Part shown: positions 4,914 to 58,641 of the stretch, piece after piece | Layout of the letters: every line of letters begins with the position of its first letter | Numbering within the stretch: position 1 is the stretch's first letter | Assembly: GCA_945788685.1 (NCBI GenBank) | Contig: CALZMZ010000003.1 | Coordinates: 1-58,641 of the forward strand | Direction: 5' to 3' | DNA from: Thermodesulfovibrionia bacterium | GTDB lineage: Bacteria > Nitrospirota > Thermodesulfovibrionia > UBA6902 | DNA: 58,641 nucleotides | Position numbers and translations under genes: made by a program | Notes under the pieces: model-generated | Told to the model about the DNA's origin: nothing | The model's database searches: none | The model's input: only the letters and a program-made list of their open reading frames with translations

Positions 4914-5807
4914 ATGACACTGTTAACACCAGACCAGTTAATAGAAGAAATTCTAAAAGAAGTGCCTGAATTGAGGCAATCTCTGTCTGATAAAGAACAT
5001 ATTAAAACGACAACGTTGTTGAGAGAGTATGTTTACAATCACATTGTTTGGAGTAACGACGGCCTGCAGTTACATAACTATTGTGACGGGAATGTTTCGA
5101 ATCTCTCGGTCTCTCAAATAAATTTTTTATTTAACACACGGGAAATTGGCGTTTTATGCGGAGGAGTAGCGACATATTTATCAAAAATATATGAACTGTT
5201 TGGATATCATTCATCGATTTATAATTATGGCATTCCTGACATTTCAACTCACGTAACTACTGTTGTAACAGTACCTGTCAATGGAGTTATGGAAATTGTA
5301 GTTCATGATGCAACGTTTAACCTGAGCTATGTAATACAGAAGACCGGAGATCGCAGTTTTATTAATATAATGAACCTTTTAATTGAGGGCAGAAATAAAG
5401 ATATTGAAATCAAGAAGGGCGACGTTAAAGAAAAAATTATATATTTCAGTGACAACCTTGAGGGTATTGAAAATATAGAGCTCCATAAAAAAGAAAATAT
5501 GCTCTTTGAAGAACCGATTGCAGGTACTACCATGTTGACTAACAGACCTATCTTTTATGCCAGGGGTGATATCGATTTCCATTCAAGTTATGTGAGAAGG
5601 TATGAGTCAAATATTTTAAAGGCTGTTTCTGAAAGATTACAAAAAGATATCAATAATTGTAATGTGCTCGATTTGATGCTGTTCCCGTTAAACTTGCCAT
5701 ATTTTAAACACGAAGGACTGCAGGTATTGATAAATAATCTGGAGAATGATCTTCTGAATTGCAAGTTCATGAAAAATCAGAATGACCTCAAGATTGCGGT
5801 GGTTTAG
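4914..5807 (+). CDS. hypothetical protein
   Basis: 297-aa ORF packed inside the operon. A possible Cys/His/Asp arrangement ('GVLCGG', 'THV', 'VHDAT') hints at a transglutaminase/papain-like fold, but this is speculative. Confidence 0.5.
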   Translation: MTLLTPDQLIEEILKEVPELRQSLSDKEHIKTTTLLREYVYNHIVWSNDGLQLHNYCDGNVSNLSVSQINFLFNTREIGVLCGGVATYLSKIYELFGYHSSIYNYGIPDISTHVTTVVTVPVNGVMEIVVHDATFNLSYVIQKTGDRSFINIMNLLIEGRNKDIEIKKGDVKEKIIYFSDNLEGIENIELHKKENMLFEEPIAGTTMLTNRPIFYARGDIDFHSSYVRRYESNILKAVSERLQKDINNCNVLDLMLFPLNLPYFKHEGLQVLINNLENDLLNCKFMKNQNDLKIAVV

Positions 5808-5820
5808 ATGAATAATCCTA

Positions 5821-7314
5821 TTGAGCGGAAGGGTTGATATGATCAAGAGTTCACATATTAGTATGCGCGGACTTGCAACCATGCCCTGGATTCAATTATT
5901 TGCATCGCCTGCATGCAATTTAAAATGTGATTATTGCAGTCAGCAGAGCGTTAGACGCCACAAAGTTACACATGATTTTCTTCAGGACCCGGAACTTCTG
6001 GAATTTATTTGTCGTATACCTCCAACACATATATATCTGAGCGGGGGAGAACCTCTGATCCATCCTGGAACAAAGGAATTTATCTCTCTCGCAGGCAGAC
6101 GGGGTCACAAGATTTCAATCGATACAAACCTGATGATTTCAGGAAAGAAAATTGAGGAATTAATAAGCAGTTGGGATCCGGACTGGATTGGCATTGTCAA
6201 TGTAAGCCATCATCTGATTTGCGGTATAACCCTGGAAGACATTGAATCCCGTATCAGGCCGCTCAAAGAAGCAGACATTAAGCATTTTGTCAAATATATA
6301 GGAGTCCCGGAGCACTTTCCTTTAATTGAAAGATATATGAACGTGCTGAAAGACAGAGGGACGGGTGCTGCGGTAACGGTTATGCAGGGAAATTGGAAGG
6401 GCCGGACAATTCCGGAGGAATACTCACTTGATGAAACTATAACGTTGCTGGACCTCGTCACACTTAATACACATGGTCTCCAGCTCTTTGACGGTATACA
6501 TTCCAGGGGGATGTCATGCAGGGGTGGTCAGGATTTCATAGCATACAACATGCATGACGACAGAAAGATCATATCCTGTTGTCATGGCAGTTCATATCCG
6601 CTGAACATGAATGATATCTACTTTGAAACGGGAACCAGAAACTGCCTTGAATGCAGGATAGATCAGTGCATGGCTGATATGGTTTTTATATGTGGAATTA
6701 ATGGCATAACTGATGAGATAGAAAGGTTTGACAAACTGTGTAACGGAAATTTCAAGTTTCAGGGAGTCGAGTCAGTAATACATTTTGCAGAAGAGATAAT
6801 AGACAAGGGATATAGGCTTGTCAATAACAGTAAGTTTCTAGCTGTTCGTAAGCATGTATCAAATAGCTGCCATTCTGTTACGGCATCAGGTTTTAAGATT
6901 TCTTATGATGAAGAAATATCGCATATTCATTCTCCGAAAGAAATAAACCATACGGCTGAAGACAGAGTCAGGGACGGAAAGACAGAGGAGGCAAAATCAT
7001 TACTTCATAATCTCATAAGAAAGTATCCAGAAAACAGTACTGCCTTAAATAACCTGGGGGTTGTCTATTTGCAGGAAGGAGATATGGATAATGCAATTAA
7101 ATATTTCGAAGAGGCATTAGAATTTGACCCTGATAATGGTTATGCTCTTGTGAACTTTGCTGCTGCGATGGCATCTTGTGGAAATTTTGATACTGCCGCC
7201 GCTCTCTGCAAAAAATACCAACAGACAAATACGACTAACGACGAAGCTGCAGGTCTTCTGTCAATAATTGAAGAAATTCAAATTTTACATGCAAAGGGCA
7301 AAAACATTGCTTGA
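5821..7314 (+). CDS. radical SAM enzyme fused to C-terminal TPR cassette
   Basis: 497-aa ORF with a TTG start at 5821 and an ATG alternative at 5839. Motifs are 'CNLKCDYCS', 'LSGGEPLIHP' and auxiliary cysteines 'ISCCHG...CLEC'. The C-terminal TPRs read 'ALNNLGVVYLQEGDMDNAIKYFEEALEFDPDN'. Confidence 0.75.
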   Translation: MSGRVDMIKSSHISMRGLATMPWIQLFASPACNLKCDYCSQQSVRRHKVTHDFLQDPELLEFICRIPPTHIYLSGGEPLIHPGTKEFISLAGRRGHKISIDTNLMISGKKIEELISSWDPDWIGIVNVSHHLICGITLEDIESRIRPLKEADIKHFVKYIGVPEHFPLIERYMNVLKDRGTGAAVTVMQGNWKGRTIPEEYSLDETITLLDLVTLNTHGLQLFDGIHSRGMSCRGGQDFIAYNMHDDRKIISCCHGSSYPLNMNDIYFETGTRNCLECRIDQCMADMVFICGINGITDEIERFDKLCNGNFKFQGVESVIHFAEEIIDKGYRLVNNSKFLAVRKHVSNSCHSVTASGFKISYDEEISHIHSPKEINHTAEDRVRDGKTEEAKSLLHNLIRKYPENSTALNNLGVVYLQEGDMDNAIKYFEEALEFDPDNGYALVNFAAAMASCGNFDTAAALCKKYQQTNTTNDEAAGLLSIIEEIQILHAKGKNIA

Positions 7315-47841: not shown

Positions 47842-48622
47842 TAAAAAGGCTATAGTTCTGTTAAGCGGTGGACTTGATTCTGCTACTACTTTTGCGGTGG
47901 CAATTGCAGAAGGGTATGAGGTTTATGCGCTCAGCTTTGATTATGGTCAGAGACATAAAGTGGAACTTGATGCATCCCGGCGCATAGCTGAATATTATAA
48001 AGTAGATAAACATCTTGTTATTGATATCAATTTAAGAGGGATCGGCGGGTCTGCATTAACTTCAGATATTGAGGTTCCTAAGAACAGACAACAGAGCACA
48101 GAATACAGAACGCAAGACACAATTTACAGATCACAGATTACAGATCTTAGATTACAGAAAGAAACACAAATTCCTGTTACCTATGTCCCTGCCAGGAATA
48201 CAATATTCCTTTCATTAGCACTGGCATGGGCGGAGACGTTGAAAGCGTCTGATATTTTCATCGGGGTCAATGCAATAGACTACAGCGGCTATCCTGATTG
48301 CAGACCTGAATATATACAGGCATTTGAAGATATGGCCAATCTTGCGACAAAGGTTTCGGTGGAAGGAGATATCAAGTTTGAAATCCGCACACCGCTTATT
48401 GTACTTTCCAAGGCTGAGATTATAAAAAAGGGGAGGGAACTTGGCGTTGACTATTCGCTTACCTGGAGCTGTTATGATCCGCAAGAATCAGAGAACAGAG
48501 CACAGAACACAGAACATAGACAAGAATACATTCCATGTGGCAAATGTGACAGTTGTATTCTCCGGGCCAGGGGCTTTGAAGAAGCCGGATTATCAGATCC
48601 TCTGAAACCTCCTGTGGAGTGA
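47837..48622 (+). CDS. queC: 7-cyano-7-deazaguanine synthase QueC carrying two in-frame repeat-derived insertions
   Basis: 261-aa ORF with a GTG start and the PP-loop '[12 protein letters not shown]'. '[13 protein letters not shown]', '[11 protein letters not shown]' and the Zn-type cysteines 'SCY...CGKCDSC' are present. Confidence 0.85.
48084..48167. repeat. heptanucleotide array (ACAGANN x12, 84 nt) inside queC, in frame
   Basis: The units are acagaca acagagc acagaat acagaac gcaagac acaattt acagatc acagatt acagatc ttagatt acagaaa gaaacac. The array encodes '[28 protein letters not shown]'. Confidence 0.85.
48481..48529. repeat. second heptanucleotide array (ACAGARC-like, ~6-7 units) inside queC
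   Basis: The units are gcaagaa tcagaga acagagc acagaac acagaac atagaca agaatac. The array encodes '[16 protein letters not shown]', between 'SCYDP' and 'CGKCDSC'. Confidence 0.75.
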
Positions 48623-48625
48623 ATA

Positions 48626-48646
48626 TATCGAAGTTGATCTTCGATA
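48626..48646 (+). terminator. hairpin immediately after queC (weak terminator candidate)
   Basis: An 8-bp perfect stem pairs TATCGAAG with CTTCGATA around a 5-nt loop, 4 nt after the stop. The downstream U-tract is poor. Confidence 0.3.
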
Positions 48647-48887
48647 GACGGAATTATATTATTTGCATTTTCAGTCCCTCACCACAGGCCCACACAAATC
48701 TTATTGAGCAGATCGACAAATTAGAGGTTTTTAAAACATTGATTATATTTTTCAATTGCACAAATAGATCATTTAGTGATAAATTATAGATGTAGGCGTT
48801 TTCTATCGTTGATCATTTAAAAAGCTCTCTTTCATAAATAAAATACTGATGTTAAGTGAACCAGACTGTGATTGAGTCTGAAACATT

Positions 48888-49577
48888 ATGAAAAACAGAA
48901 GAAACTATTACCGCATACTTCAGGTTCAGCCGGATGCTCCTCTTGAAATAATCCGTGCAAGTTATCGCACGATTATGAGGGAATTGATGGGGCACCCGGA
49001 TTTTGGAGGTGATCATCATGATGCCATTATTTTTAATGAAGCTTATGCGACGTTGAGTGATAGTGTTAAACGTGCTGAATATGACAAAAAATATTTAAAA
49101 TATATTTCTAATAAAACAGCAGATGAATTAAATATCAGAAAAGAGTCTTCTACAAATATTAACGACCCTCTCCGAACAAGACCTTTTACCCGTCAAACAA
49201 AAGATGTTAAGGACAGTCAGGATTATACGGACCTGAAATCAAAAAAAACTCAAAAGGCATATTGTGAGAACTTTTATCGTGCTGTTAATCGTGTGAAAAT
49301 GAAAGGAACAGAGCTGTACTATTTCACCTCTTCAAATAAAAAACGGCAAGCAAAAATACTGGACCTGTCTCCAAAAGGAATTCGTTTTACCAGCACAGAG
49401 AAATTGACTCGTGAGTCAAATATTAAGATAGGATGTTCTTTATTTAAAGCTGAAGCTGAGGTGGTAAATTATAATCAGGACCTCTCAAGTGACAGGCCCG
49501 TTTATTCAGTTGGGGCCCGCTTCCTCAAGGTTAAGTTTAAGAATCAGACAAGCTCTTTTTATTCTAAATTCGTATAA
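48888..49577 (+). CDS. J-domain (DnaJ-like) - PilZ fusion protein
   Basis: 229-aa ORF. The N-terminal J domain reads 'NYYRILQVQPDA...MGHPDFGGD...AYATLSD..KRAEYD' with HPD. The C-terminal PilZ motifs are RxxxR ('YRAVNR') and DxSxxG ('DLSPKG'). Confidence 0.7.
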   Translation: MKNRRNYYRILQVQPDAPLEIIRASYRTIMRELMGHPDFGGDHHDAIIFNEAYATLSDSVKRAEYDKKYLKYISNKTADELNIRKESSTNINDPLRTRPFTRQTKDVKDSQDYTDLKSKKTQKAYCENFYRAVNRVKMKGTELYYFTSSNKKRQAKILDLSPKGIRFTSTEKLTRESNIKIGCSLFKAEAEVVNYNQDLSSDRPVYSVGARFLKVKFKNQTSSFYSKFV

Positions 49578-49584
49578 TTACCAT

Positions 49585-49809
49585 ATAGAATCTGTCCTCA
49601 TATGCCTGCTTGGAGGTATAATTGGCGCCGCTCTCGGTACAGGTTCTGTTGTTGCCATATCGCATCTGAGCAATAAACCCATACTTCTGGCTACTGAATA
49701 TATTGGAATAGCATTGTGCATATCCATTATCGTCGGTATTGTATCGGGCATTTACCCTGCGGCCAGAGCAGCGTCCATGGACCCGGTGGATGCCCTGCGA
49801 TTTGAATAA
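49585..49809 (+). pseudogene. 3' remnant of an FtsX/MacB-type ABC transporter permease gene
   Basis: It encodes only the last ~74 aa, 'IESVLICLLGGIIGAALG...IVGIVSGIYPAARAASMDPVDALRFE', which is the conserved C-terminal helix of FtsX-like permeases. There is no upstream permease or ATPase sequence, and it abuts the stop of the DnaJ-PilZ gene. Confidence 0.7.
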
Positions 49810-49875
49810 ATAATAACGTTGCAGCATTAATAGGTATCTGGATTAGTAGTTTAAAAAGATCAGTCGAACAGAATG

Positions 49876-50412
49876 TTATCTGTATTTCAATCCAACAGAT
49901 ATCCAGAAGAATGGATTTATTACTCTTATTAATGAAGATGCTCTGTTAGACTTGTAAACAGCAATCGCCCGGTCTATATAATCTATTGCTATATCCGGTT
50001 CAATATCATTACGGCCAAGATTGAAAATATTAAGTATCAAATTTATATTTTTGCCGTGTTCCCTGACAGATACCGAAGGGGTAGAGACAGTATAGGTTTT
50101 TATTCCTGCATGACTTATTATTGCGTAAGCATTCTTTATGATCAGATTAATGCTTTTCTTTGCATCTGCTGCTTCCGGCTTTTCATTATACGTACCGGAT
50201 ACCATATTGAGTATGCTGTTATCAAAATATGTTTGCACCAATGACCGAAATTGTGTTAATAATTTTAGTCGTGCCCTGTTTTCCCAGTAGGGTATATCTT
50301 TATAATTTTTTCTTGCCTGCTTCATTAATTTTCTAACGTATTTGTATTCGATCCGTATTTGATATGCAGGATATTTTCTGCCTGTACCTATTATTCGGTC
50401 TGGAAGTCGCAA
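49876..50412 (-). CDS. hypothetical protein
   Basis: 178-aa ORF with a TTG start and an internal ATG alternative at 'MKQARKNY'. No motif was recognised. It is isolated on the reverse strand. Confidence 0.4.
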   Translation of the reverse strand: MRLPDRIIGTGRKYPAYQIRIEYKYVRKLMKQARKNYKDIPYWENRARLKLLTQFRSLVQTYFDNSILNMVSGTYNEKPEAADAKKSINLIIKNAYAIISHAGIKTYTVSTPSVSVREHGKNINLILNIFNLGRNDIEPDIAIDYIDRAIAVYKSNRASSLIRVINPFFWISVGLKYR

Positions 50413-50617
50413 TTCTTGATGTATCGGGCATCAGTCGGACATTTCACGTTTTCGCGCTTTTTGTAATTTATATCACGGATTTTCAATGAAAAAAAAGATT
50501 ATCTTATTACATTAATGACCCGCAACTAATGATGGCAGGAGATTATTGTAATACTCAAGAATACATGAGGATGTTCCGGTAATGTTAATGATATTAATTA
50601 AATTCAGGAGGTAATGT

Positions 50618-51206
50618 ATGCTTAAAAAATGGGGATCAGAAAAAAGTAATGGTAATTCTGATAGTTCTAAAAAGGACATTCAGAAGGATATTGATGATAA
50701 TGCAGAAAATGTGACATCCGATAAAGGCACTGGTGACAGAAAGGTAAATAACATCCTCAAGGGATGCAAAGTAACAGGAAATATCAATGTAACCTGTGAC
50801 ATGGTATTAAGTGGAGATGTGGAAGGTAATATAATGTAAGGGCAATATTGAGTCCGGGAGTGGAGATGTTGACATCAGGGGAGAGTTAAGGAAAGGAAAC
50901 ATAACAACAGGCGGCAATGTATCAATCTCCGGAAAATTCACCGGAGGAGAAGTAAAAGCAAAGGGCAAGATATTTGTAAACTGTGAATTTACAGGTAAGC
51001 TGGAAGGAAATGAGATCGAAATCGGTGCGAATGCTCATGTCAGGGGAGAATTATTTTACACAGAGTATATCTCGGTGGCCAGAGGTGCCAAAGTGGAAGT
51101 ACATCTTTGTCGTATCCCGGATGAGAGTAAAGGAGAAAATAAAACGCAGCAGAAAAAAGTTCCGGACATGAAGCCGCCCGTGAAAGAATTGGTTGGTGTG
51201 AAATAA
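50618..51206 (+). pseudogene. bactofilin (DUF583-type polymer-forming protein) interrupted by a +1 frameshift near 50835-50840
   Basis: Frame 1 (50618-50839) ends 'ILKGCKVTGNINVTCDMVLSGDVEGNIM*'. The +1 frame is open from 50835 to 51206 with no start codon. It continues the beta-helix repeat: 'GNIESGSGDVDIRGEL.KGNITTGGNVSISGKFTGGEVKAKGKIFVN..FTGKLEGNEIEIGANAHVRGEL'. Confidence 0.65.
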
Positions 51207-51460
51207 ATAGAGCAGTACAATGTGAAATGAAATATATTGCTTATGTTTCATCATTATATATAAAAGATTTGCAATTACATAATATGACCTGAATTACAAA
51301 AGCCTTTACAAGTTTTGTAAAGGCTTTTCTTAACTTGATCCTGGATCCCATGCTGTTTTCAATGTAATTTTCATTCACCTCAACTTTTAACTTATAAGTT
51401 GTTATATTTGTGAATGATGAAGGTAATCGGATAGTTGAGAAAATAAAGGAGACTGAAACT

Positions 51461-53578
51461 ATGGCACTTCTCCAGGACATAATGAATGCAGAGAAATGGA
51501 ATCCCGGTATTAAAAAGGATTCCAATGCAAATGATGAAAAAGAAATTACAATTACCAAGGTTGATGGCGATAACATATCTATTGAAGGTTCTTCTCAAAA
51601 CACCACAAAGCATAAAGAATTGAATTCATTGATAATGGAGCAACATCCGGGTGCATTGCAGCACGATACATCTACAGTAGAAAACATCAAGGGATTACAA
51701 TCTTCATCCAGACAAGTATCTGTGAAATCAGCCTCTATAACGGATACAGCTGAAATGAATTTCACTCAACCCAAACCATCTTCGGTCAGCGCCTTTAAGA
51801 CAAAAAAAAGAGTGAGAAAAAACGGTAAGCTGTGGATCTTACTTATGGCAGGCCTCCTCATCAGTATAGTGTCAGGTGCCGGTATGGCTCTATGGCTGTC
51901 AGGCTCTGACAGCAACACGGATAACAGTCTGCAGGCAAACTATGTTGAAAATAGTGATATGGTCTTAAGTGGAGATGATGAAGATTATATTACTGACGAT
52001 GGCGGTATTGCCATGGGAAATGAGAGTGATTTTCCGGATGAAGATCTGTATGCCGTCATGGATGGCGATAATGAACATATTATTGAAGAAGGCGAACTTT
52101 ACAAGGGAAGTGAAAGTGGAATTCTTGATGAAGATCTGTATGCTGTCATGGATGAAAATGATATGGAATTAAATGACATGGAATATGCTGAAGATGATCT
52201 TTCAGATATTGCATTGGAAGATTCTTCTTTTAATGAAGAAATTGCAGTGGCATCAGTTCATGGTAACAAGCCGGGTACGCTTGAAGAAAACGGCGAAATC
52301 ACTATGAAAGAGGAGTCTCCATCAGACGATAAGATAGCAGCTGCTATTTCCTCACTGAAAGAAAATAGAGACAAAGAAATAATAATAGAGAAAGAAGTAC
52401 AGGAAAAACCTGTTACGCCGAAATCCACGGAAAAAGTCAAACAGCCGACGGTAAAGAAGTCATCCTCTGTATTTGCAGAGAAGAAACAATTAACAATAGT
52501 AAAGCCTGTTTCACAAGAAACAGAAGTGAATAAGAAAATATCCGATACAAAAAAATTTACAGTTAATAACGGAACTCAGTCAATAAGCAACAGTGCACAA
52601 AAAACTGATAAACTGGCAAATCAGAAATCAAGTGAAGCTCCAATTACTTCCACAAATAAAGTTCTGGAGCCTCATAAAGCAGAGCCTGTTGAAGTATCTG
52701 TCAAAGAAATACTGCAGCTGGCCCCTGTTAAGTTGAAAGAGTCAATTAAAATACCCGTTAAGACAGCATCAAAGCAGGAAAAGCCTTTTTTCAGTAATAC
52801 TGAGGTTAAAGCTGTACCAGTCGATATTCCTGTGGTTAAAGAAAAAGAAATAACAGCATCGAAACAGAAAAAGACAGCCATTGGCATTACCGGGATTAAT
52901 ACTCTCCCAACCGGGATAGCTTCAGCTAAGGATCATGTTGTGACAGCTTCAAAACAGGATAAACCTTATCCCGGGAATACAAAGATTAAATCTCCTCAAA
53001 CCGGAATATCATCAATTCTCAAGGAAATGAGTGTAAATTATGAGGACCAGTTTAACAGCAATACAAACAACTGGCCGGAATATGACATCAGTAAAGCCTC
53101 TGCAGTCATAGCAAAGGGAGCGTATCACATTGAAAACAGGGTGCGCACAGGTACTCATGCGCTGGTCCACCCTGATGGGGTGCCAATTGATATGGATTTA
53201 ATGATTGATGTTTCAATCGGGTCGGTCCGTAGTTCAGGCAACAATTCTTATGGCTTCATTTTTGGTGCAAAAGATACCAGTAATAATTATGCATTTCTTG
53301 TTAGGAACGGTCAGTTTTATTCAATAGAAAAAATGACTGGAGGTAAAAGTACGGAAATGCGGGGAGGACAGATAGATAACATATTCATAAGCGGGGACTC
53401 TCAAAAGTCAATGAAAATAGTAAAACGGAAGAATATAATCCGTTTTTATATCGATGGTCATCTGATTGATGAAATTGCAGATATTGACTATTTCGGAAAT
53501 AAGATAGGGTTTCTTATAAGAGGAAAAGCAAGGATGTCTGTTGACCGTACACGAACGCAGATCAGGTTTCAGAAATAA
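51461..53578 (+). CDS. single-pass membrane protein with acidic and Lys-rich repeat regions and a C-terminal ~180-aa domain shared with 53728-54399
   Basis: The ATG at 51461 has SD 'aaggag'; the ORF track starts at GTG 51410. The TM helix is 'LWILLMAGLLISIVSGAGMALWL'. Repeats are 'DEDLYAVMD' x2 and 'TASKQ.KP' x3. The C-terminal domain runs 'NNWPEYD...YGFIFGAKDTSNNYAFLV...IRFYIDGHLIDE'. Confidence 0.6.
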   Translation: MALLQDIMNAEKWNPGIKKDSNANDEKEITITKVDGDNISIEGSSQNTTKHKELNSLIMEQHPGALQHDTSTVENIKGLQSSSRQVSVKSASITDTAEMNFTQPKPSSVSAFKTKKRVRKNGKLWILLMAGLLISIVSGAGMALWLSGSDSNTDNSLQANYVENSDMVLSGDDEDYITDDGGIAMGNESDFPDEDLYAVMDGDNEHIIEEGELYKGSESGILDEDLYAVMDENDMELNDMEYAEDDLSDIALEDSSFNEEIAVASVHGNKPGTLEENGEITMKEESPSDDKIAAAISSLKENRDKEIIIEKEVQEKPVTPKSTEKVKQPTVKKSSSVFAEKKQLTIVKPVSQETEVNKKISDTKKFTVNNGTQSISNSAQKTDKLANQKSSEAPITSTNKVLEPHKAEPVEVSVKEILQLAPVKLKESIKIPVKTASKQEKPFFSNTEVKAVPVDIPVVKEKEITASKQKKTAIGITGINTLPTGIASAKDHVVTASKQDKPYPGNTKIKSPQTGISSILKEMSVNYEDQFNSNTNNWPEYDISKASAVIAKGAYHIENRVRTGTHALVHPDGVPIDMDLMIDVSIGSVRSSGNNSYGFIFGAKDTSNNYAFLVRNGQFYSIEKMTGGKSTEMRGGQIDNIFISGDSQKSMKIVKRKNIIRFYIDGHLIDEIADIDYFGNKIGFLIRGKARMSVDRTRTQIRFQK

Positions 53579-53727
53579 ACAGATATGCTGATGTATTTCA
53601 CCATAAGTACAACTAAACATAACAGGGTAAAACCTTCAATATACATTAAAGAAAAGTTCATATATGCATAGTTGTGAGCTGTGTCCGGCTTACTGCCGGA
53701 GTAAATTAAAAAATGAGAGGTGATCAG

Positions 53728-54399
53728 ATGAGAAAAATTGGCTGCATAATTCTTTCAGGTTTTTTAATGGCTGTTTTAATAACGGCACATGCATCTTTTG
53801 CACAGGATAATGGGTCCGGGATATCTTCTACTTTAAGAGAGATGTCTGTCGTGTATGAGGACAAGTTCGATACACACTCCAACAACTGGCCTGAATATGA
53901 AAACAGTTTATCTTCGGCCCTGATAAATGATGGAGAATACCATATTGAAAATAATGAAAAAGGGAGCCTGCATGTTGTTCTGCATCCTAATGGTATTTCC
54001 ATGGGAATGGACTCCATGATTCAGGTCTCGATCAGTGATATTCGGGGGGCAGGAAGGTATTCTTACGGGTTTGTCTTTGGTGCTAAAGACACGTCCAATA
54101 ACTATTCACTCCAGGTCACGAACGAAAATCTGTATATCGTCGAAAAAATGGTCAATGGAAAACGTAAAGAAGTTGCAAGAGGGCCGATCGACAATGTTTT
54201 TTCCAGCGACAGTTTTGGCAAGACCCTTAAGCTGGTAAAACAGCGGGATAAAATAAGGTTTTATGTCGATGATAACTATGTTGACGAGCTGCTCATTTCC
54301 GACGCCAAATTTCCGGGAGACCTGGTCGGGTTCCTTGTCAGTGGCAGGGCAAAAATATCGGTAGACTGGACGAGGACACAGATTAAATACAAAGGGTAG
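53728..54399 (+). CDS. secreted protein consisting of the shared ~180-aa domain (possible lectin/jelly-roll fold)
   Basis: The signal peptide is 'MRKIGCIILSGFLMAVLITAHASFAQ'. The rest aligns by eye with the C-terminus of the upstream ORF: 'NNWPEYE', 'YGFVFGAKDTSNNYSLQV', 'IRFYVDDNYVDE', 'VDWTRTQIKY'. Confidence 0.65.
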   Translation: MRKIGCIILSGFLMAVLITAHASFAQDNGSGISSTLREMSVVYEDKFDTHSNNWPEYENSLSSALINDGEYHIENNEKGSLHVVLHPNGISMGMDSMIQVSISDIRGAGRYSYGFVFGAKDTSNNYSLQVTNENLYIVEKMVNGKRKEVARGPIDNVFSSDSFGKTLKLVKQRDKIRFYVDDNYVDELLISDAKFPGDLVGFLVSGRAKISVDWTRTQIKYKG

Positions 54400-54538
54400 A
54401 AGCTGTAATATAAGCAGGATCAGGCGTATATTGAGTTATTGATTAAATTATGACGTAAATGTATTTACTCAGGGGCGGTTTTCAAACCTCATATCATAAA
54501 TCAAGGGAGGATCCCTCGTTCCCTACTTATGAATGATG

Positions 54539-57500
54539 TTATGAATTTAAAATATTTCTTTCAATTGCTTCTCCGGCAATATGATCTCCGAGTGCCCGGT
54601 AAGCCTCAAACTGGGCGTCATCAAAGAATTGATCTGCTGTTGTCTGATGAGGGAAGTCCGCGTTGTCTTTTTGGTAATTCTTCACATGAACAGGCAGTTT
54701 ATATTTCCTTTTCACATTCTTTCCATATTTTTCTTTTTCTAATACGATTTCAGGCTCACTCAATGATGATTTTAGATAGATAAGTCTTCCGTCCTTTTCT
54801 TCATCATATTCTACATCATTCCCTTTATGGGGTGGATATTTGATAGTTCCTATGGCAACGCTGCTCTTACTCAATTGATACGTTCCGTCCTTATTTTTCT
54901 CAGGAACAATTTTGGACAGATCGATATCAATCTTTATGTTCTCTTCAATATAGGCCATTCTCACGACATTGTTAAAGGATGTAAAACTGTAATTGCCGTC
55001 ATCCTCACCATCGCAAATGACGATCAACTTGACGCGCCTTTGCAGGAGAGGCAGAAACCCGAGATTATCGCCTGTGTGTCCGCCATCGGATACATTAACA
55101 AGACGCTTACGTGCATCACACAAATCAAATAGCTCATATCCCAGCCACATTGGCCAGTATGTTGGCCAGTGTATCGGTTTTTTCACGCGTTTATTGGTTT
55201 TTTTTGTCAGACAACACCAGAGATTTACAATCCATGTTGGCCAGTAAATTGGTTCTGTCTCAGTTTTAGAGCCTCTTTTTCTAACGTAGCTCCAGTGATC
55301 TGTATCCCACATTCGCCAGTATATTGGTTTTTTTTCTGGATTAACTTTTATCTTATTACAGTAAGCCCATGGATTTGCCATCCAGTAACCGAGTCTGATA
55401 TTAAAAAGAGTTGCAGCAAACGCCTGAGCGCCGAAGGAATGAAAGCCCATGGCCGAGCCTGCAGCAGCAGCGGAAATTGTCATGGCCCTTGCAAGTTTGG
55501 TTTCACCATCACGATACGCGCTTGTCTTGACATAGCCCGTTACTCGGGAACCAACATAGTTTTTACTGAAAATGAAATGTTCTGATAGCATCCTCTTTCT
55601 GTTTAGCTCTTTGGAGCCCTGAAGGTTTAGGGCAGCGACAATAATATGATATGGACCGCGATTGTTATTTTCCCCTATATCCATTAATTTGAGATCGTCA
55701 TGATTCCGGATATTTTTCAATGGCATGCCCTGCTGTTTACACTTATCATCTTTTGCCCGTCTGATACGGGCGTCAGTCTTCAGATAAGCCTCGGTCAGAC
55801 GGTCTCGATAGAAATAATGGGGGGAAACCCTGTTTGAATCAACTATGATACCCAGTCCGCTGAATATAAGAAAGGCAACAACAGCGATCACTGATTCAAA
55901 CCAGGGTGATAAGAAGCGAAAGACCGGGTCAAGGTAAATGTGATGTGTGATTATTTTTGACACAACATCAAAACTGAGGGCAAGGAACAGAAATACAAGC
56001 AGTGAAAGGAGCGGCTTGCGTATTGTATCCATCATTTTACTGAATTTACCACCCTGACCTGTCTTCTGTTTCAGGACTAGAAAACTAAACAAAAGAGTTA
56101 TGGCTGTCCACCAGAATTTCATCGAAAAGTAGCTGAGTGAGAACAGGAATACTATTATTACCGGTACGATTATAGCGAGAACAATCCCGTAGAACGTAGC
56201 GCCCTGGATTGCACTGTAGAGGGAGCGATGGACCCGGTCTACTTCATCTTCAGATTTAAAACACAATCCCGCGTGAACAACCAACAGGGATATAATTTTG
56301 CCGCCAAATGCATAGCTCAGGGGGAGAAACAATACAGATAGTTGGTAAGGGTCTTCATGTGTCCATTGATACGTTAATGCAGCAATTATCGTGGCAATCA
56401 CTGCCACAATAACAGAGTAAATATTCAATCCGTGAATAAATTTAATTTCATAGTGGTCCTCAATATTAAATCCAGCCTTTGTATCCATGGTTGGATTTGG
56501 AGCATTCTTATTAATTTTTTCCCGTATTATATTTGCACGATAAATAAAAGATAAAGTCGTAATAAATCCAAGCAGAATAAAAAAAATATGAACTTTCCAA
56601 ATTTGTGGGTATCCTGTATAGAACATATTATATAGCGGTACGCCAATCCGTGAGTACCCCCATGCTTTCAGTTCATTTAATAGATATTCCGTGCTGGACT
56701 CTTCCACGTTGCTTGCGTGATTAAGAAGCGATTTTTGATGCTCTGTAGAGACAAGGGGATGAGACAGTTTTTGCTGCTTGGAAGAATTATCGAAATTAAG
56801 CGATTTCCCCAGAGTTTCCAGGAAATTGTCAGTACCTTTGGAGAACTCTATGTCCTTGTATCGCTTTAATTTATTAACAACATCATCAGGAACACCCTCA
56901 ATGGTTAAATATGATAGTGTCTTGTCGGTGATAATATATCTGTATTTTACGTCATAATTGAGTTCGTCTAACATTTTAAGAGGGCTGCCTGCTGCTAAAA
57001 TAAGTAAAAAATGTATGAGAGAAGTGGCCATGATGATTAACAGCGTATACAGGACTAAATGATGGAAGATGCCGGTTGTAAGTGTACCGACTACACGCTG
57101 CAGGCCGCGGCTGAGAATGTCCTTCCGTGGAAGAATATACTCGCCATGAGTTCTCAAGTGATGGATTTGATGCCGAACACTGAGGCTGGCATCTTCACCT
57201 GTTTCATATGATACTACCTTGCCTGATTCATCAATTTTTTCTAAATCAACAAAAGGAGAGTTTTCAGGATCAACCCCGGTACCATCTGTTGCGCCAGAAG
57301 CATCTTGTGTTAACAAAGAAGTCAAACAGCTGCCAATATACCCACCTCCGGAAACTGTGCTCAGATAGTCAAATCTTCTAAATATCTTCTCCCTGATGAG
57401 TTTCTGCATCATTCCCAGACAGAGGGTTGCCGATCGAATGCCTCCACCTGAAAAACAGATACCCAAGGCGTCCTTTGAATCTTCGATTGTATCTTGTATG

Positions 57501-57604
57501 TTATTCTTTGCACGACGCTTGTTGATGTATTCAATTTCAGAATCAATAACTGCCTGCAAATCATCTGTATAAAAGTCATTTTTTGGATTAGTTTCAGAGT
57601 TCAT
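54539..57604 (-). CDS. patatin/cPLA2-like phospholipase with a large multi-TM insertion between the catalytic Ser and Asp motifs
   Basis: 1021-aa ORF. The oxyanion motif is 'FSGGGIRSA', the nucleophile elbow is 'STVSGGGY' and the catalytic Asp motif is 'VSDGGHTGDNLG'. About 400 aa of hydrophobic helices separate Ser from Asp. Family-typical 'FYRDRLTEAYL' and 'NIRLGYWMANP' are present. Confidence 0.8.
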   Translation of the reverse strand: MNSETNPKNDFYTDDLQAVIDSEIEYINKRRAKNNIQDTIEDSKDALGICFSGGGIRSATLCLGMMQKLIREKIFRRFDYLSTVSGGGYIGSCLTSLLTQDASGATDGTGVDPENSPFVDLEKIDESGKVVSYETGEDASLSVRHQIHHLRTHGEYILPRKDILSRGLQRVVGTLTTGIFHHLVLYTLLIIMATSLIHFLLILAAGSPLKMLDELNYDVKYRYIITDKTLSYLTIEGVPDDVVNKLKRYKDIEFSKGTDNFLETLGKSLNFDNSSKQQKLSHPLVSTEHQKSLLNHASNVEESSTEYLLNELKAWGYSRIGVPLYNMFYTGYPQIWKVHIFFILLGFITTLSFIYRANIIREKINKNAPNPTMDTKAGFNIEDHYEIKFIHGLNIYSVIVAVIATIIAALTYQWTHEDPYQLSVLFLPLSYAFGGKIISLLVVHAGLCFKSEDEVDRVHRSLYSAIQGATFYGIVLAIIVPVIIVFLFSLSYFSMKFWWTAITLLFSFLVLKQKTGQGGKFSKMMDTIRKPLLSLLVFLFLALSFDVVSKIITHHIYLDPVFRFLSPWFESVIAVVAFLIFSGLGIIVDSNRVSPHYFYRDRLTEAYLKTDARIRRAKDDKCKQQGMPLKNIRNHDDLKLMDIGENNNRGPYHIIVAALNLQGSKELNRKRMLSEHFIFSKNYVGSRVTGYVKTSAYRDGETKLARAMTISAAAAGSAMGFHSFGAQAFAATLFNIRLGYWMANPWAYCNKIKVNPEKKPIYWRMWDTDHWSYVRKRGSKTETEPIYWPTWIVNLWCCLTKKTNKRVKKPIHWPTYWPMWLGYELFDLCDARKRLVNVSDGGHTGDNLGFLPLLQRRVKLIVICDGEDDGNYSFTSFNNVVRMAYIEENIKIDIDLSKIVPEKNKDGTYQLSKSSVAIGTIKYPPHKGNDVEYDEEKDGRLIYLKSSLSEPEIVLEKEKYGKNVKRKYKLPVHVKNYQKDNADFPHQTTADQFFDDAQFEAYRALGDHIAGEAIERNILNS

Positions 57605-57830
57605 ATCAAATCCCTTTCATATACAGGTTTAGTCCTATCTCTTTCTGTTCACCGGGTTTGAAAATAACTATCATGGAGCCTCGCTGACTGGAAGTATATC
57701 CGATCTTATGCCCATATGCAAGAAAATAAATTATATATGCGAAGGCATTGAAATTATTAATTATACATGTTAATGTGGGCAAAGGTTTAACAAAAAAGCG
57801 CGGTTTTTCTAAGGAAAAAGAGGAGGGAAT

Positions 57831-58641
57831 ATGGAAATCTTAAAAAGGCTCTTTGGCGATTTCAGATTCTTGATATTGTGTCGTGTTTTATCGCTGGTTG
57901 TTTTATTTAATGTTGGAGCATCTTATGCTGAGCAGGAAAATGCAAATGCAGACAGGAGGGGTAATCTGCAGGTGAGATTTCATAATGGTCTGGTGATTGA
58001 AAATTTTGCATCTGGTGAGCGTGACAACTATCTGAATCCGGATGAGGCATCAAGAGCCGTTACGCTGTTGGCTTGGATTTTGCCTACCGGCTTTATGGGA
58101 ACTCTGATCCGGTTACATGGTTTGATAATCCTCAGATATGGTTGTATGGCAATACCCTCCATGGAGTGCGAAGCACTGAAGTTAATTGCGATGATCATCC
58201 CAAACTGAATTTCTGCAAAAATAACGTGAATATTGATCCGAATGCGTCGGAGAATCTGTATATATTGAGAAATGCAACAAGCCTGGAAGGTTTTTTAGGG
58301 ATACGATATGAGTTTCATACACTGCAGGGAGAAAGCAGCGGATCAGACAAGGGACCGGCAGCCAATGTGTATTTTAGCGGTCAGTTAGGATTACTCACAG
58401 TTTCTGATAGCGGTGGTGATGTTATTGATGTCCATCATTTATCTACAGGTGTTGTCATTACAGCAGGTGACTTCAGAAACAGTTTTATAGAAGCGGGTTA
58501 TGGAAAAAATGATTTATTTGAAAAAAACAGAAACCGGAGGTTTAAAGTTAATGCCATGGCAATGTGGCGTTCCAGCAAAATAGTGAAAGAGGTACCATTA
58601 CTGGCACAATTTGCTATCTTTGCAAAGATAGCCGCTGATAC
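57831..58641 (+). pseudogene. signal-peptide protein (beta-rich, possibly outer-membrane) with an apparent -1 frameshift near 58045-58060; 3' end outside window
   Basis: Frame A gives the signal peptide 'LSLVVLFNVGASYAEQ' and then turns into hydrophobic nonsense before its stop at 58208. A second frame is open from 58046 to the window end with no start codon. It reads like a real protein: 'YRLYGNSDPVTWFDNPQIWLYGNTLHG...LGIRYEFHTLQGES...'. Confidence 0.4.

Follow-up and report, generated by a model that had tools for sequence, protein, structure and literature searches.

How bacteria degrade and remodel their membrane phospholipids is poorly understood, and PlaF, a phospholipase A1 of the Pseudomonas aeruginosa inner membrane for which a part in a bacterial Lands cycle has been proposed, is among the few intracellular phospholipases A that have been studied (PMC9132575). 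Lipases of the patatin/cPLA2 superfamily have been described in several forms. Classical patatins (PF01734; 1OXW, PlpD 5FYA, RssA-type) have a contiguous catalytic domain of about 190-330 amino acids (aa) and are soluble or peripheral, while the group IV cytosolic phospholipases A2 (cPLA2; alpha 1CJY; delta 5IZ5/5IXC; PLA2_B, PF01735) act at the cytoplasmic face of the membrane. ExoU and VipD (3TU3, 4AKX, 4AKF, 4KYI) are large soluble proteins with extra domains past the patatin core, injected and activated by host factors, and CapV of the cyclic oligonucleotide-based antiphage signalling system (CBASS) is small, soluble, cyclic-nucleotide-activated and always found beside a CD-NTase (PMC12480259). 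Here we describe P0001, a protein encoded on the minus strand at positions 54539-57604 of a 58,641-nucleotide (nt) stretch of a Thermodesulfovibrionia genome (contig CALZMZ010000003.1, hereafter the window), in which a Ser-Asp dyad of this superfamily is split by a block of transmembrane (TM) helices. The reading we favour, and consider rather probable, is that P0001 is a standalone inner-membrane Ser85/Asp840 acyl hydrolase that faces the cytoplasm and acts on the cell's own lipids in their turnover or remodelling.

The open reading frame (ORF) list and the translation give an intact gene of 1021 codons plus a stop codon. Its three catalytic motifs sit where the original prediction, made from the DNA letters alone, had put them: the glycine-rich oxyanion loop FSGGGIRSA (residues 51-59, nt 57428-57454), the nucleophile motif STVSGGGY (residues 82-89, nt 57338-57361; nucleophile S85) and the aspartate motif VSDGGH (residues 838-843, nt 55076-55093; catalytic Asp D840). 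The wide split between Ser and Asp also stands, but S85 and D840 are 755 residues apart, and the earlier figure of ~770 had been counted roughly from the oxyanion motif. Motif conservation was scored over an alignment of 120 homologs. The S, G, G, G and R of the oxyanion loop are identical in 117 of these, the remaining three being gapped there, and V84, S85, G86, G87 and G88 are kept in 119, D840 in 118 and G841 in 119. Two further segments, FYRDRL and NIRLGYWMANP, had been called family-typical. They are present and nearly invariant (F598 and R602 without exception, Y599, D601 and L603 in 119 of the 120; N735, R737, G739, W741, N744 and P745 without exception), but what they typify is the TM-split family and not patatins generally. 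The ordered signature SGGG[IV]R[SA]AT, [ST]VSGGG, polytopic TM block, FYRDRL, NxRxGxW..NP and SDGGHTGDN has all six of its elements in P0001, and their order is kept across the aligned homologs. Because both halves of the dyad are so strongly conserved, the sequences argue for an active enzyme.

The motifs tie P0001 to both branches of the superfamily. With classical patatins it shares G-G-x-R, a G-x-S-x-G-like elbow and D-G-G, but theirs is a single uninterrupted domain and their elbow begins with Gly; in P0001 that first Gly is Thr, and Thr or Ser takes its place family-wide, a deviation from the superfamily elbow. With group IV cPLA2 it shares the Ser-Asp dyad, the G-G-G-x-R loop with its Arg, the x-S-G-[GS] elbow and a long stretch between Ser and Asp. 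By motif position, R57 is the counterpart of cPLA2 Arg200.

The block of hydrophobic helices that the original prediction had noted between the motifs is real. Kyte-Doolittle hydropathy and an AlphaFold2 (AF2) model agree on eight TM helices (residues 166-205, 332-367, 381-415, 422-449, 457-492, 495-510, 520-556 and 566-587), and a non-hydrophobic loop of ~130 aa separates the first two. The N-terminus of the protein is hydrophilic and carries no hydrophobic signal. With the N-terminus placed inside, the predicted inside loops hold 6+3+6 = 15 Lys or Arg residues and the short outside loops 0+0+2 = 2. Because the number of helices is even and Lys and Arg are distributed in this way, both catalytic halves are predicted to be cytoplasmic, and AF2 draws them as one compact body. 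A Ser motif and an Asp motif on opposite sides of the membrane, which the original prediction had named as the mark of an inactive fold, is therefore not what the predicted topology gives. The loop at residues 206-334 should, from TM parity and the positive-inside rule, be periplasmic. Its occupancy in the alignment is 0.17-0.65, being mostly missing or much shorter in relatives, and AF2 builds it from several short helices and a small sheet, with a predicted local distance difference test (pLDDT) score of 52-90. Pfam found no family match in this loop.

The hydrophobic block is as conserved as the catalytic halves: it is occupied in nearly all of the aligned sequences, R460, G468 and P481 are invariant and S461 is nearly so. 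This suggests a function beyond that of a passive anchor, and it bears on an alternative in which P0001 would in the main be not a hydrolase but a lipid transacylase or an acyltransferase, or would couple a lipase to the translocation of lipids. Its TM groove would extract or flip a lipid for the Ser-Asp site, and the product would be a modified lipid, such as an N-acyl or acyl-exchanged phospholipid, instead of a free fatty acid. Group IV cPLA2 enzymes do include transacylases and N-acyltransferases (PMC7603386). However, Foldseek against PDB structures returned no confident relative for the TM block, every match to it having a probability of at most 0.41 and those to TMEM16, ferroportin and MFS proteins at most 0.15, and nothing in the window hints at an acyl-acceptor pathway. 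We regard this alternative as unlikely.

Profile searches place only the N-terminal half of the protein. Positions 1-52 of the Pfam Patatin model (PF01734) match residues 49-102, scoring 27.3 bits with full-length P0001 and 30.4 bits with the isolated N-terminal 175 aa, against a gathering threshold of 27.7. The hidden Markov model (HMM) search proposed in the original prediction thus finds the N-half, but the full-length score falls just short, and with only 52 of 191 model positions covered and a non-contiguous domain, P0001 is not a PF01734 member by HMM. Pfam found neither a C2 domain nor PLA2_B in P0001; several homologs have short, partial PLA2_B matches, and in one of them (P0146) model positions 289-336 lie over the S-D-G-G-H-T-G-D-N segment. 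NCBIfam and PADLOC searches of P0001 assigned no family, an unrelated model being the best PADLOC match at E 0.09. Among PDB sequences, P0001 as a single query had no match, and the family profile had only weak N-half ones, to VipD, cPLA2 delta, cPLA2 alpha and ExoU.

The AF2 model, built from a 119-sequence alignment, has a mean pLDDT of 85.8 and a predicted TM-score (pTM) of 0.85. In the N-half, two strands (47-52, 80-84) and two helices (55-71, 86-97) are modelled with pLDDT >90, a level that the C-half reaches as well; there, strand 835-839 runs into D840. Foldseek against PDB ranked cPLA2 alpha first (1cjy; E 2e-3, probability 1.00, 422-435 columns) and cPLA2 delta next (5iz5/5ixc), the cPLA2 matches together having probabilities of 0.99-1.00 over 422-442 aligned columns; the patatin structures 1oxw/4pkb, VipD and PlpD came lower. 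P0001 is a member of the patatin/cPLA2 superfamily, closer to cPLA2, and a conventional member of neither Pfam family. The earlier description of a patatin-like lipase holds in the sense of a superfamily Ser-Asp hydrolase with a TM-split dyad, but the fold is closer to cPLA2 than to plant patatin. Unlike cPLA2, P0001 is bacterial and has no C2 domain and no Ca2+-dependent recruitment; with eight TM helices inserted it would be permanently membrane-embedded, and its C-half has no significant sequence similarity to cPLA2.

From these features we propose how the enzyme might work. Residues 1-165 would contribute the oxyanion loop, rich in Gly, together with the nucleophile elbow, and residues 589-1021 the remaining alpha/beta core and the Asp. 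The two halves would leave the membrane on its cytoplasmic face and pack into one catalytic domain on the inner leaflet, in which the dyad would reassemble. This constitutively embedded enzyme would deacylate glycerophospholipids or lysophospholipids drawn straight from the inner leaflet of the bilayer, through an interfacial entrance formed by juxtamembrane segments (140-178 before TM1; FYRDRL after TM8; NIRLGYW..NP) together with an aromatic helix or helices. Its role would be the turnover or remodelling of membrane lipids, as a phospholipase A or lysophospholipase of Lands-cycle type. We infer this substrate and physiological role, as we do the role of the repeat discussed below. Of the functions offered in the original prediction, that of a remodelling lipase seems the most plausible, and fusions to a class-3 lipase within the same subfamily (an N-terminal Lipase_3 domain, PF01764, in P0054, P0073, P0074 and P0076, giving two lipases in one polypeptide) point to lipid metabolism or catabolism. 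The closest functional analogue would be PlaF, which is likewise an inner-membrane-tethered, cytoplasm-facing phospholipase A acting on endogenous glycerophospholipids. PlaF has, however, an unrelated fold, that of the alpha/beta-hydrolases, with a Ser-Asp-His triad and a single TM helix at the N-terminus; the likeness lies in the proposed working mode only.

Several results weigh against this proposal. The isolated C-half matches nothing in Pfam even at E ≤ 10, and when the C-half was compared by hhalign with 21 classical patatins of same-phylum genomes, the match was not significant (E 0.096, probability 0.6%); in that same alignment the D-G-G, the next Asn and the I-V-x-x-D strand stand in register with the patatins. 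The Foldseek TM-scores to cPLA2 are low (TMt 0.21-0.27, root-mean-square deviation 16-20 Å) and the E-value is only 2e-3, although low TM-scores are to be expected with a 420-residue insertion, and we take the Foldseek result as supportive, not decisive. AF2 confidence drops to pLDDT <50 in the first two units of the repeat discussed below, at residues 763-775 and 777-789. The 25 nearest relatives that were searched (3 congeneric genomes, 12 from the family and 10 from the order) have no match to P0001, whose gene also lies in a rearranged, genome-specific region; both facts suit an accessory or conflict role no less than housekeeping remodelling. The literature yielded no biochemical data on any member of the family and no work on patatin or cPLA2-like proteins split by TM helices; in the lipocone paper, patatin comes up only in passing. 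The hhalign comparison also paired TISAAAAGSAMG (residues 708-719) with the patatin nucleophile elbow. We judge this pairing spurious, the segment more likely being what we take to be the A-S-x-A-x-P-x-x-F block of patatins.

Shortly before the Asp motif, P0001 carries a Trp-rich repeat that is an old, diverged in-frame tandem triplication, 25 codons to the unit, of the family's P-x-FWP-x-YL helix, private to this protein. It was demonstrated by a DNA pattern search, with a core pattern derived from the copies themselves, and by self-identity at a lag of 75 nt. The core CCRATWYAYTGGCSAAYRT occurs at 55309, 55234 and 55159, spaced by 75 nt, and nowhere else in the window (0 expected in shuffles), and the self-identity peaks at 0.72 at codons 754-760, against 0.285 ± 0.10 in the rest of the gene (>4 standard deviations). 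The copies begin at P760, P785 and P810 (PIYW, PIYW, PIHW), exactly 25 codons apart. Over 75 nt the units are only 44-64% identical (64% for unit 1 against unit 2), and because they are so diverged, Tandem Repeats Finder reported nothing on 54900-55600. The original prediction had written the repeat as three copies of KKPI(Y/H)WP.W. The three copies are confirmed and score as strongly membrane-interfacial, but the exact wording is not borne out, since copy 1 reads PIYWRMW, with R for P, and copy 2 lacks the KK. Unit 3 also holds a 12-nt internal mini-duplication (HWPT/YWPM, cores 55147/55159). A terminator-like hairpin called inside the gene at 55147-55172 on the plus strand is a by-product of this mini-duplication (ACTGGCCAAYRT twice) and is implausible as a terminator.

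In relatives, the stretch from NxRxGxW to the Asp strand is typically 42-44 residues long and has one N-P-E-x-x-x-x-F-W-P-x-Y-L segment; in P0001 it is 97 residues long with 10 Trp, and residues 750-830 hold 9 of the 17 Trp of the protein. It is unit 3 that aligns with the FWPxYL of homologs, conservation being 90% or more at W817, L821 and E824, and AF2 models a helix at 817-825 with pLDDT about 87-90. A search of 224 relatives for the triplication found none, the FWPxYL segment being single-copy there, and the idea that the triple repeat is a family trait has to be given up. Alignments to the representative library all break off at about residues 745-763 and pick up again near 815. Units 2 and 3 provide the second and third most favourable 13-mers of P0001 on the Wimley-White interfacial scale, and Lys/Arg-rich linkers (KK, RKRGSK, KKTNKRVKK) flank the units. 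Most likely the extra copies and their basic linkers would act as added interfacial anchors, or as a floppy lid, at the anionic cytoplasmic leaflet near the entrance to the active site. At the same site, Bacteroidota-type homologs (P0050-P0060, P0067, P0068, P0071 and P0078) have a 30-50-residue Trp-rich insert, for example WLxYRWxKLxGW. The insert is independent of the P0001 triplication, and the region between NxRxGxW and SDGG seems to be a hot spot where aromatic insertions recur.

The P0001 gene is clearly accessory, as none of the 25 nearest relatives has a match to it and it lies beyond a break in synteny. DNA comparison with three same-genus genomes shows the window to be collinear with them from ~40.2 to 48.6 kb, up to queC, and scattered afterwards. 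Past 48.6 kb, a DnaJ-PilZ gene, a 178-aa ORF, a bactofilin and LamG-like paralogs match dispersed places in those genomes, positions 54539-58641 have no DNA match in any of the three, and past 48.5 kb the G+C fraction falls from ~0.42 to 0.36-0.40. Positions 48600-58641 have the look of an accessory mosaic that occupies the end of the contig. Matches to P0001 were found in 7 of 151 genomes of the phylum, all distant, and horizontal acquisition would be the simplest reading. The same genome encodes a second, divergent paralog, P0233 (1120 aa; contig C116, 617-3979, plus strand), which has SGGGIRSAT, TVSGGG, FYRDRL, NIRLGYW and SDGGH, lacks the FWPxYL segment, and has a shorter TM block of ~6 helices by eye. 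Its extra C-terminal region of ~350 aa includes a Cys/His-rich patch, CEHCDCDNCDICIKHDC, and has no Pfam match. The search of the 25 nearest relatives did not find P0233 either.

This location raises the question of whether P0001 is a catalytically inert relic or structural membrane protein, whether its repeat is an artefact of assembly or binning, or whether the gene is a contaminant. The genome is a metagenome-assembled genome (MAG) of 192 contigs, 84% complete with 4.5% contamination, and the gene, only 1 kb short of the contig end, is in a stretch without counterpart in the same-genus genomes. Against this, the reading frame is intact over its full length and every catalytic residue is kept; the contig is collinear with same-genus genomes over 8 kb up to the synteny break; and the repeat units are too diverged in DNA for an assembler to have collapsed or expanded them. 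We consider any of these explanations very improbable.

The accessory status bears more directly on a role in conflict, in which P0001 would be a normally silent abortive-infection effector or self-contained toxin whose TM block or outward loop senses phage or envelope stress and whose lipase then destroys the cell's own membrane. Patatin-like lipases are established in defence, and CapV, like P0001 as proposed here, is a superfamily lipase that attacks its own inner membrane from the cytoplasm (PMC12480259). The patchy distribution of the gene, its mosaic surroundings, the second paralog that was likewise not found in the relatives searched, and a variable outward loop and variable aromatic insert, such as would be expected of the fast-evolving parts of a sensor, all fit this alternative. 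But P0001 is polytopic and has neither CapV's partner gene, nor a PADLOC family match, nor a nucleotide-sensing domain. To survey neighbours, ORFs were called and clustered in 80 loci from many phyla, and the nearest neighbours, 123 in number, were taken from 73 homologs. No conserved partner was found in the 80 loci. The commonest neighbour clusters, receiver-domain proteins (11 loci) and short-chain dehydrogenases (7 loci), stand at scattered distances, and in only ~19% of the loci does a same-strand gene stand at close spacing on one side or the other, the gene being mostly monocistronic. No Pfam family occurs more than twice among the 123 nearest neighbours, and no PADLOC model matches more than two of them, these matches being to generic domains (MotB/OmpA, ArsR-like helix-turn-helix, sigma-54 activator, cysteine desulfurase). 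Three homolog contexts checked gene by gene have unrelated metabolic neighbours. Of 2.9 million viral contigs in IMG/VR, only one encodes a relative.

The survey thus shows no association of the homologs with defence islands, and the gated suicide or defence effector of the original prediction is left unsupported; we consider an effector role rather unlikely. More specific forms of it can be set aside: a CBASS effector, as there is no partner gene; a phage-borne gene, given the one relative in IMG/VR; and a secreted toxin, since the protein is polytopic and has no secretion context. In the last respect P0001 also differs from ExoU and VipD, which resemble it in weak N-half profile and fold matches but are soluble, and no secretion-system genes lie near it. 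The sole viral-contig relative (IMGVR_UViG_3300038300_000076, 5001-6737) is at most 7 kb from one end of a 62-kb contig and may belong to the host flank of a prophage call.

The family to which this proposed lipid-remodelling hydrolase belongs is very large. A word-indexed search gave at least 5128 significant homologs among 8000 scored candidates, and when representatives at 50% identity were searched exhaustively, 13,788 clusters matched at E ≤ 1e-3, 8,581 at 1e-10 and 4,015 at 1e-30, the weakest of which are probably ordinary patatins that match the N-half alone. Scanning one genome per GTDB species gave at least 584 loci, with carriers in Desulfobacterota, Bacteroidota, Acidobacteriota, Gemmatimonadota, Planctomycetota, Verrucomicrobiota, Campylobacterota and others. 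Alpha-, Beta- and Gammaproteobacteria are carriers too, and cultured ones include Spirosoma endophyticum DSM 26130 and Massilia aurea. The closest relatives, at 47-49% identity, are from metagenome contigs and a Desulfobacterales MAG. One family member, P0128, has a C-terminal rhodanese domain.

The features of the gene are collected in Table 1. The terminator-like hairpin listed there comes from a consensus scan in which the count of such sites is not above that in shuffles. P0001 is flanked by a convergent gene (53713-54399) and by divergent ORFs from 57831 onward, and Pfam assigned no family to these flanking genes; the earlier observation that no sensor or cyclase partner adjoins the gene is borne out.

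Table 1. Features of the P0001 gene and its signals, in window coordinates
Feature	Residues	Position	Strand	Basis
Whole gene, membrane-split patatin/cPLA2-like hydrolase P0001		54539..57604	-	ORF and translation, homologs
Shine-Dalgarno-like AAAGGGA, 6 nt 5' of the ATG at 57604		57611..57617	-	Sequence inspection
N-terminal catalytic half, beta-(Gly loop)-alpha-beta-(nucleophile elbow)-alpha	1-165	57110..57604	-	Pfam Patatin match, AF2
Oxyanion/phosphate-binding S-G-G-G-I-R-S	52-58	57431..57451	-	Homolog alignment
Nucleophile elbow T-V-S85-G-G, G-x-S-x-G variant	83-87	57344..57358	-	Homolog alignment
Inserted membrane block, eight TM helices	166-588	55841..57109	-	Kyte-Doolittle hydropathy, AF2
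Predicted outward loop TM1-TM2, ~130 aa, non-hydrophobic, lineage-variable	206-334	56603..56989	-	Alignment, AF2
C-terminal catalytic half	589-1021	54542..55840	-	AF2 alpha/beta domain, mostly pLDDT >85; Foldseek
Family signature F-Y-R-D-R-L, right after TM8	598-603	55796..55813	-	Homolog alignment
Family signature N-I-R-L-G-Y-W-M-A-N-P	735-745	55370..55402	-	Homolog alignment
Repeat unit 1, PEKKPIYWRMWDTDHWSYVRKRGSK, extra copy	756-780	55265..55339	-	Lag-75 self-identity, pattern search
Repeat unit 2, TETEPIYWPTWIVNLWCCLTKKTNK, extra copy	781-805	55190..55264	-	Lag-75 self-identity, pattern search
Repeat unit 3, RVKKPIHWPTYWPMWLGYELFDLCD, family-aligned copy	806-830	55115..55189	-	Homolog alignment, AF2
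Catalytic Asp motif S-D840-G-G-H, after strand 835-839	839-843	55076..55090	-	Homolog alignment, AF2
Terminator-like hairpin, 21 nt past the stop codon		54502..54518	-	Consensus scan only

What is particular to P0001 and its window is the private aromatic triplication, the long outward loop, the second divergent paralog and the genome-specific rearranged region. The triplication is a natural experiment, marking the aromatic segment beside the catalytic Asp as tolerant of change and probably membrane-interfacial. In at least 584 GTDB species of many phyla, and in thousands of clusters, this family presents a cPLA2-like catalytic domain that is integrated with the inner membrane. One characterised member would give a function to very many proteins annotated as "patatin-like phospholipase family protein", and a view of a Ser-Asp lipase fed directly from the bilayer. 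A bolder and tentative extension, which we hold to be possible but doubtful, is that the eight-helix block is a lipid-feeding or gating module that passes phospholipids of the bilayer sideways to the cPLA2-like active site, and the aromatic segment an interfacial lid that can be expanded, access being tuned by its copy number, the whole serving as a Lands-cycle enzyme or as a stress- or phage-triggered demolition switch with a built-in sensor. If this were true, the TM feeding module would set these enzymes apart as a new class, intramembrane-fed phospholipases, to be found in thousands of bacteria.

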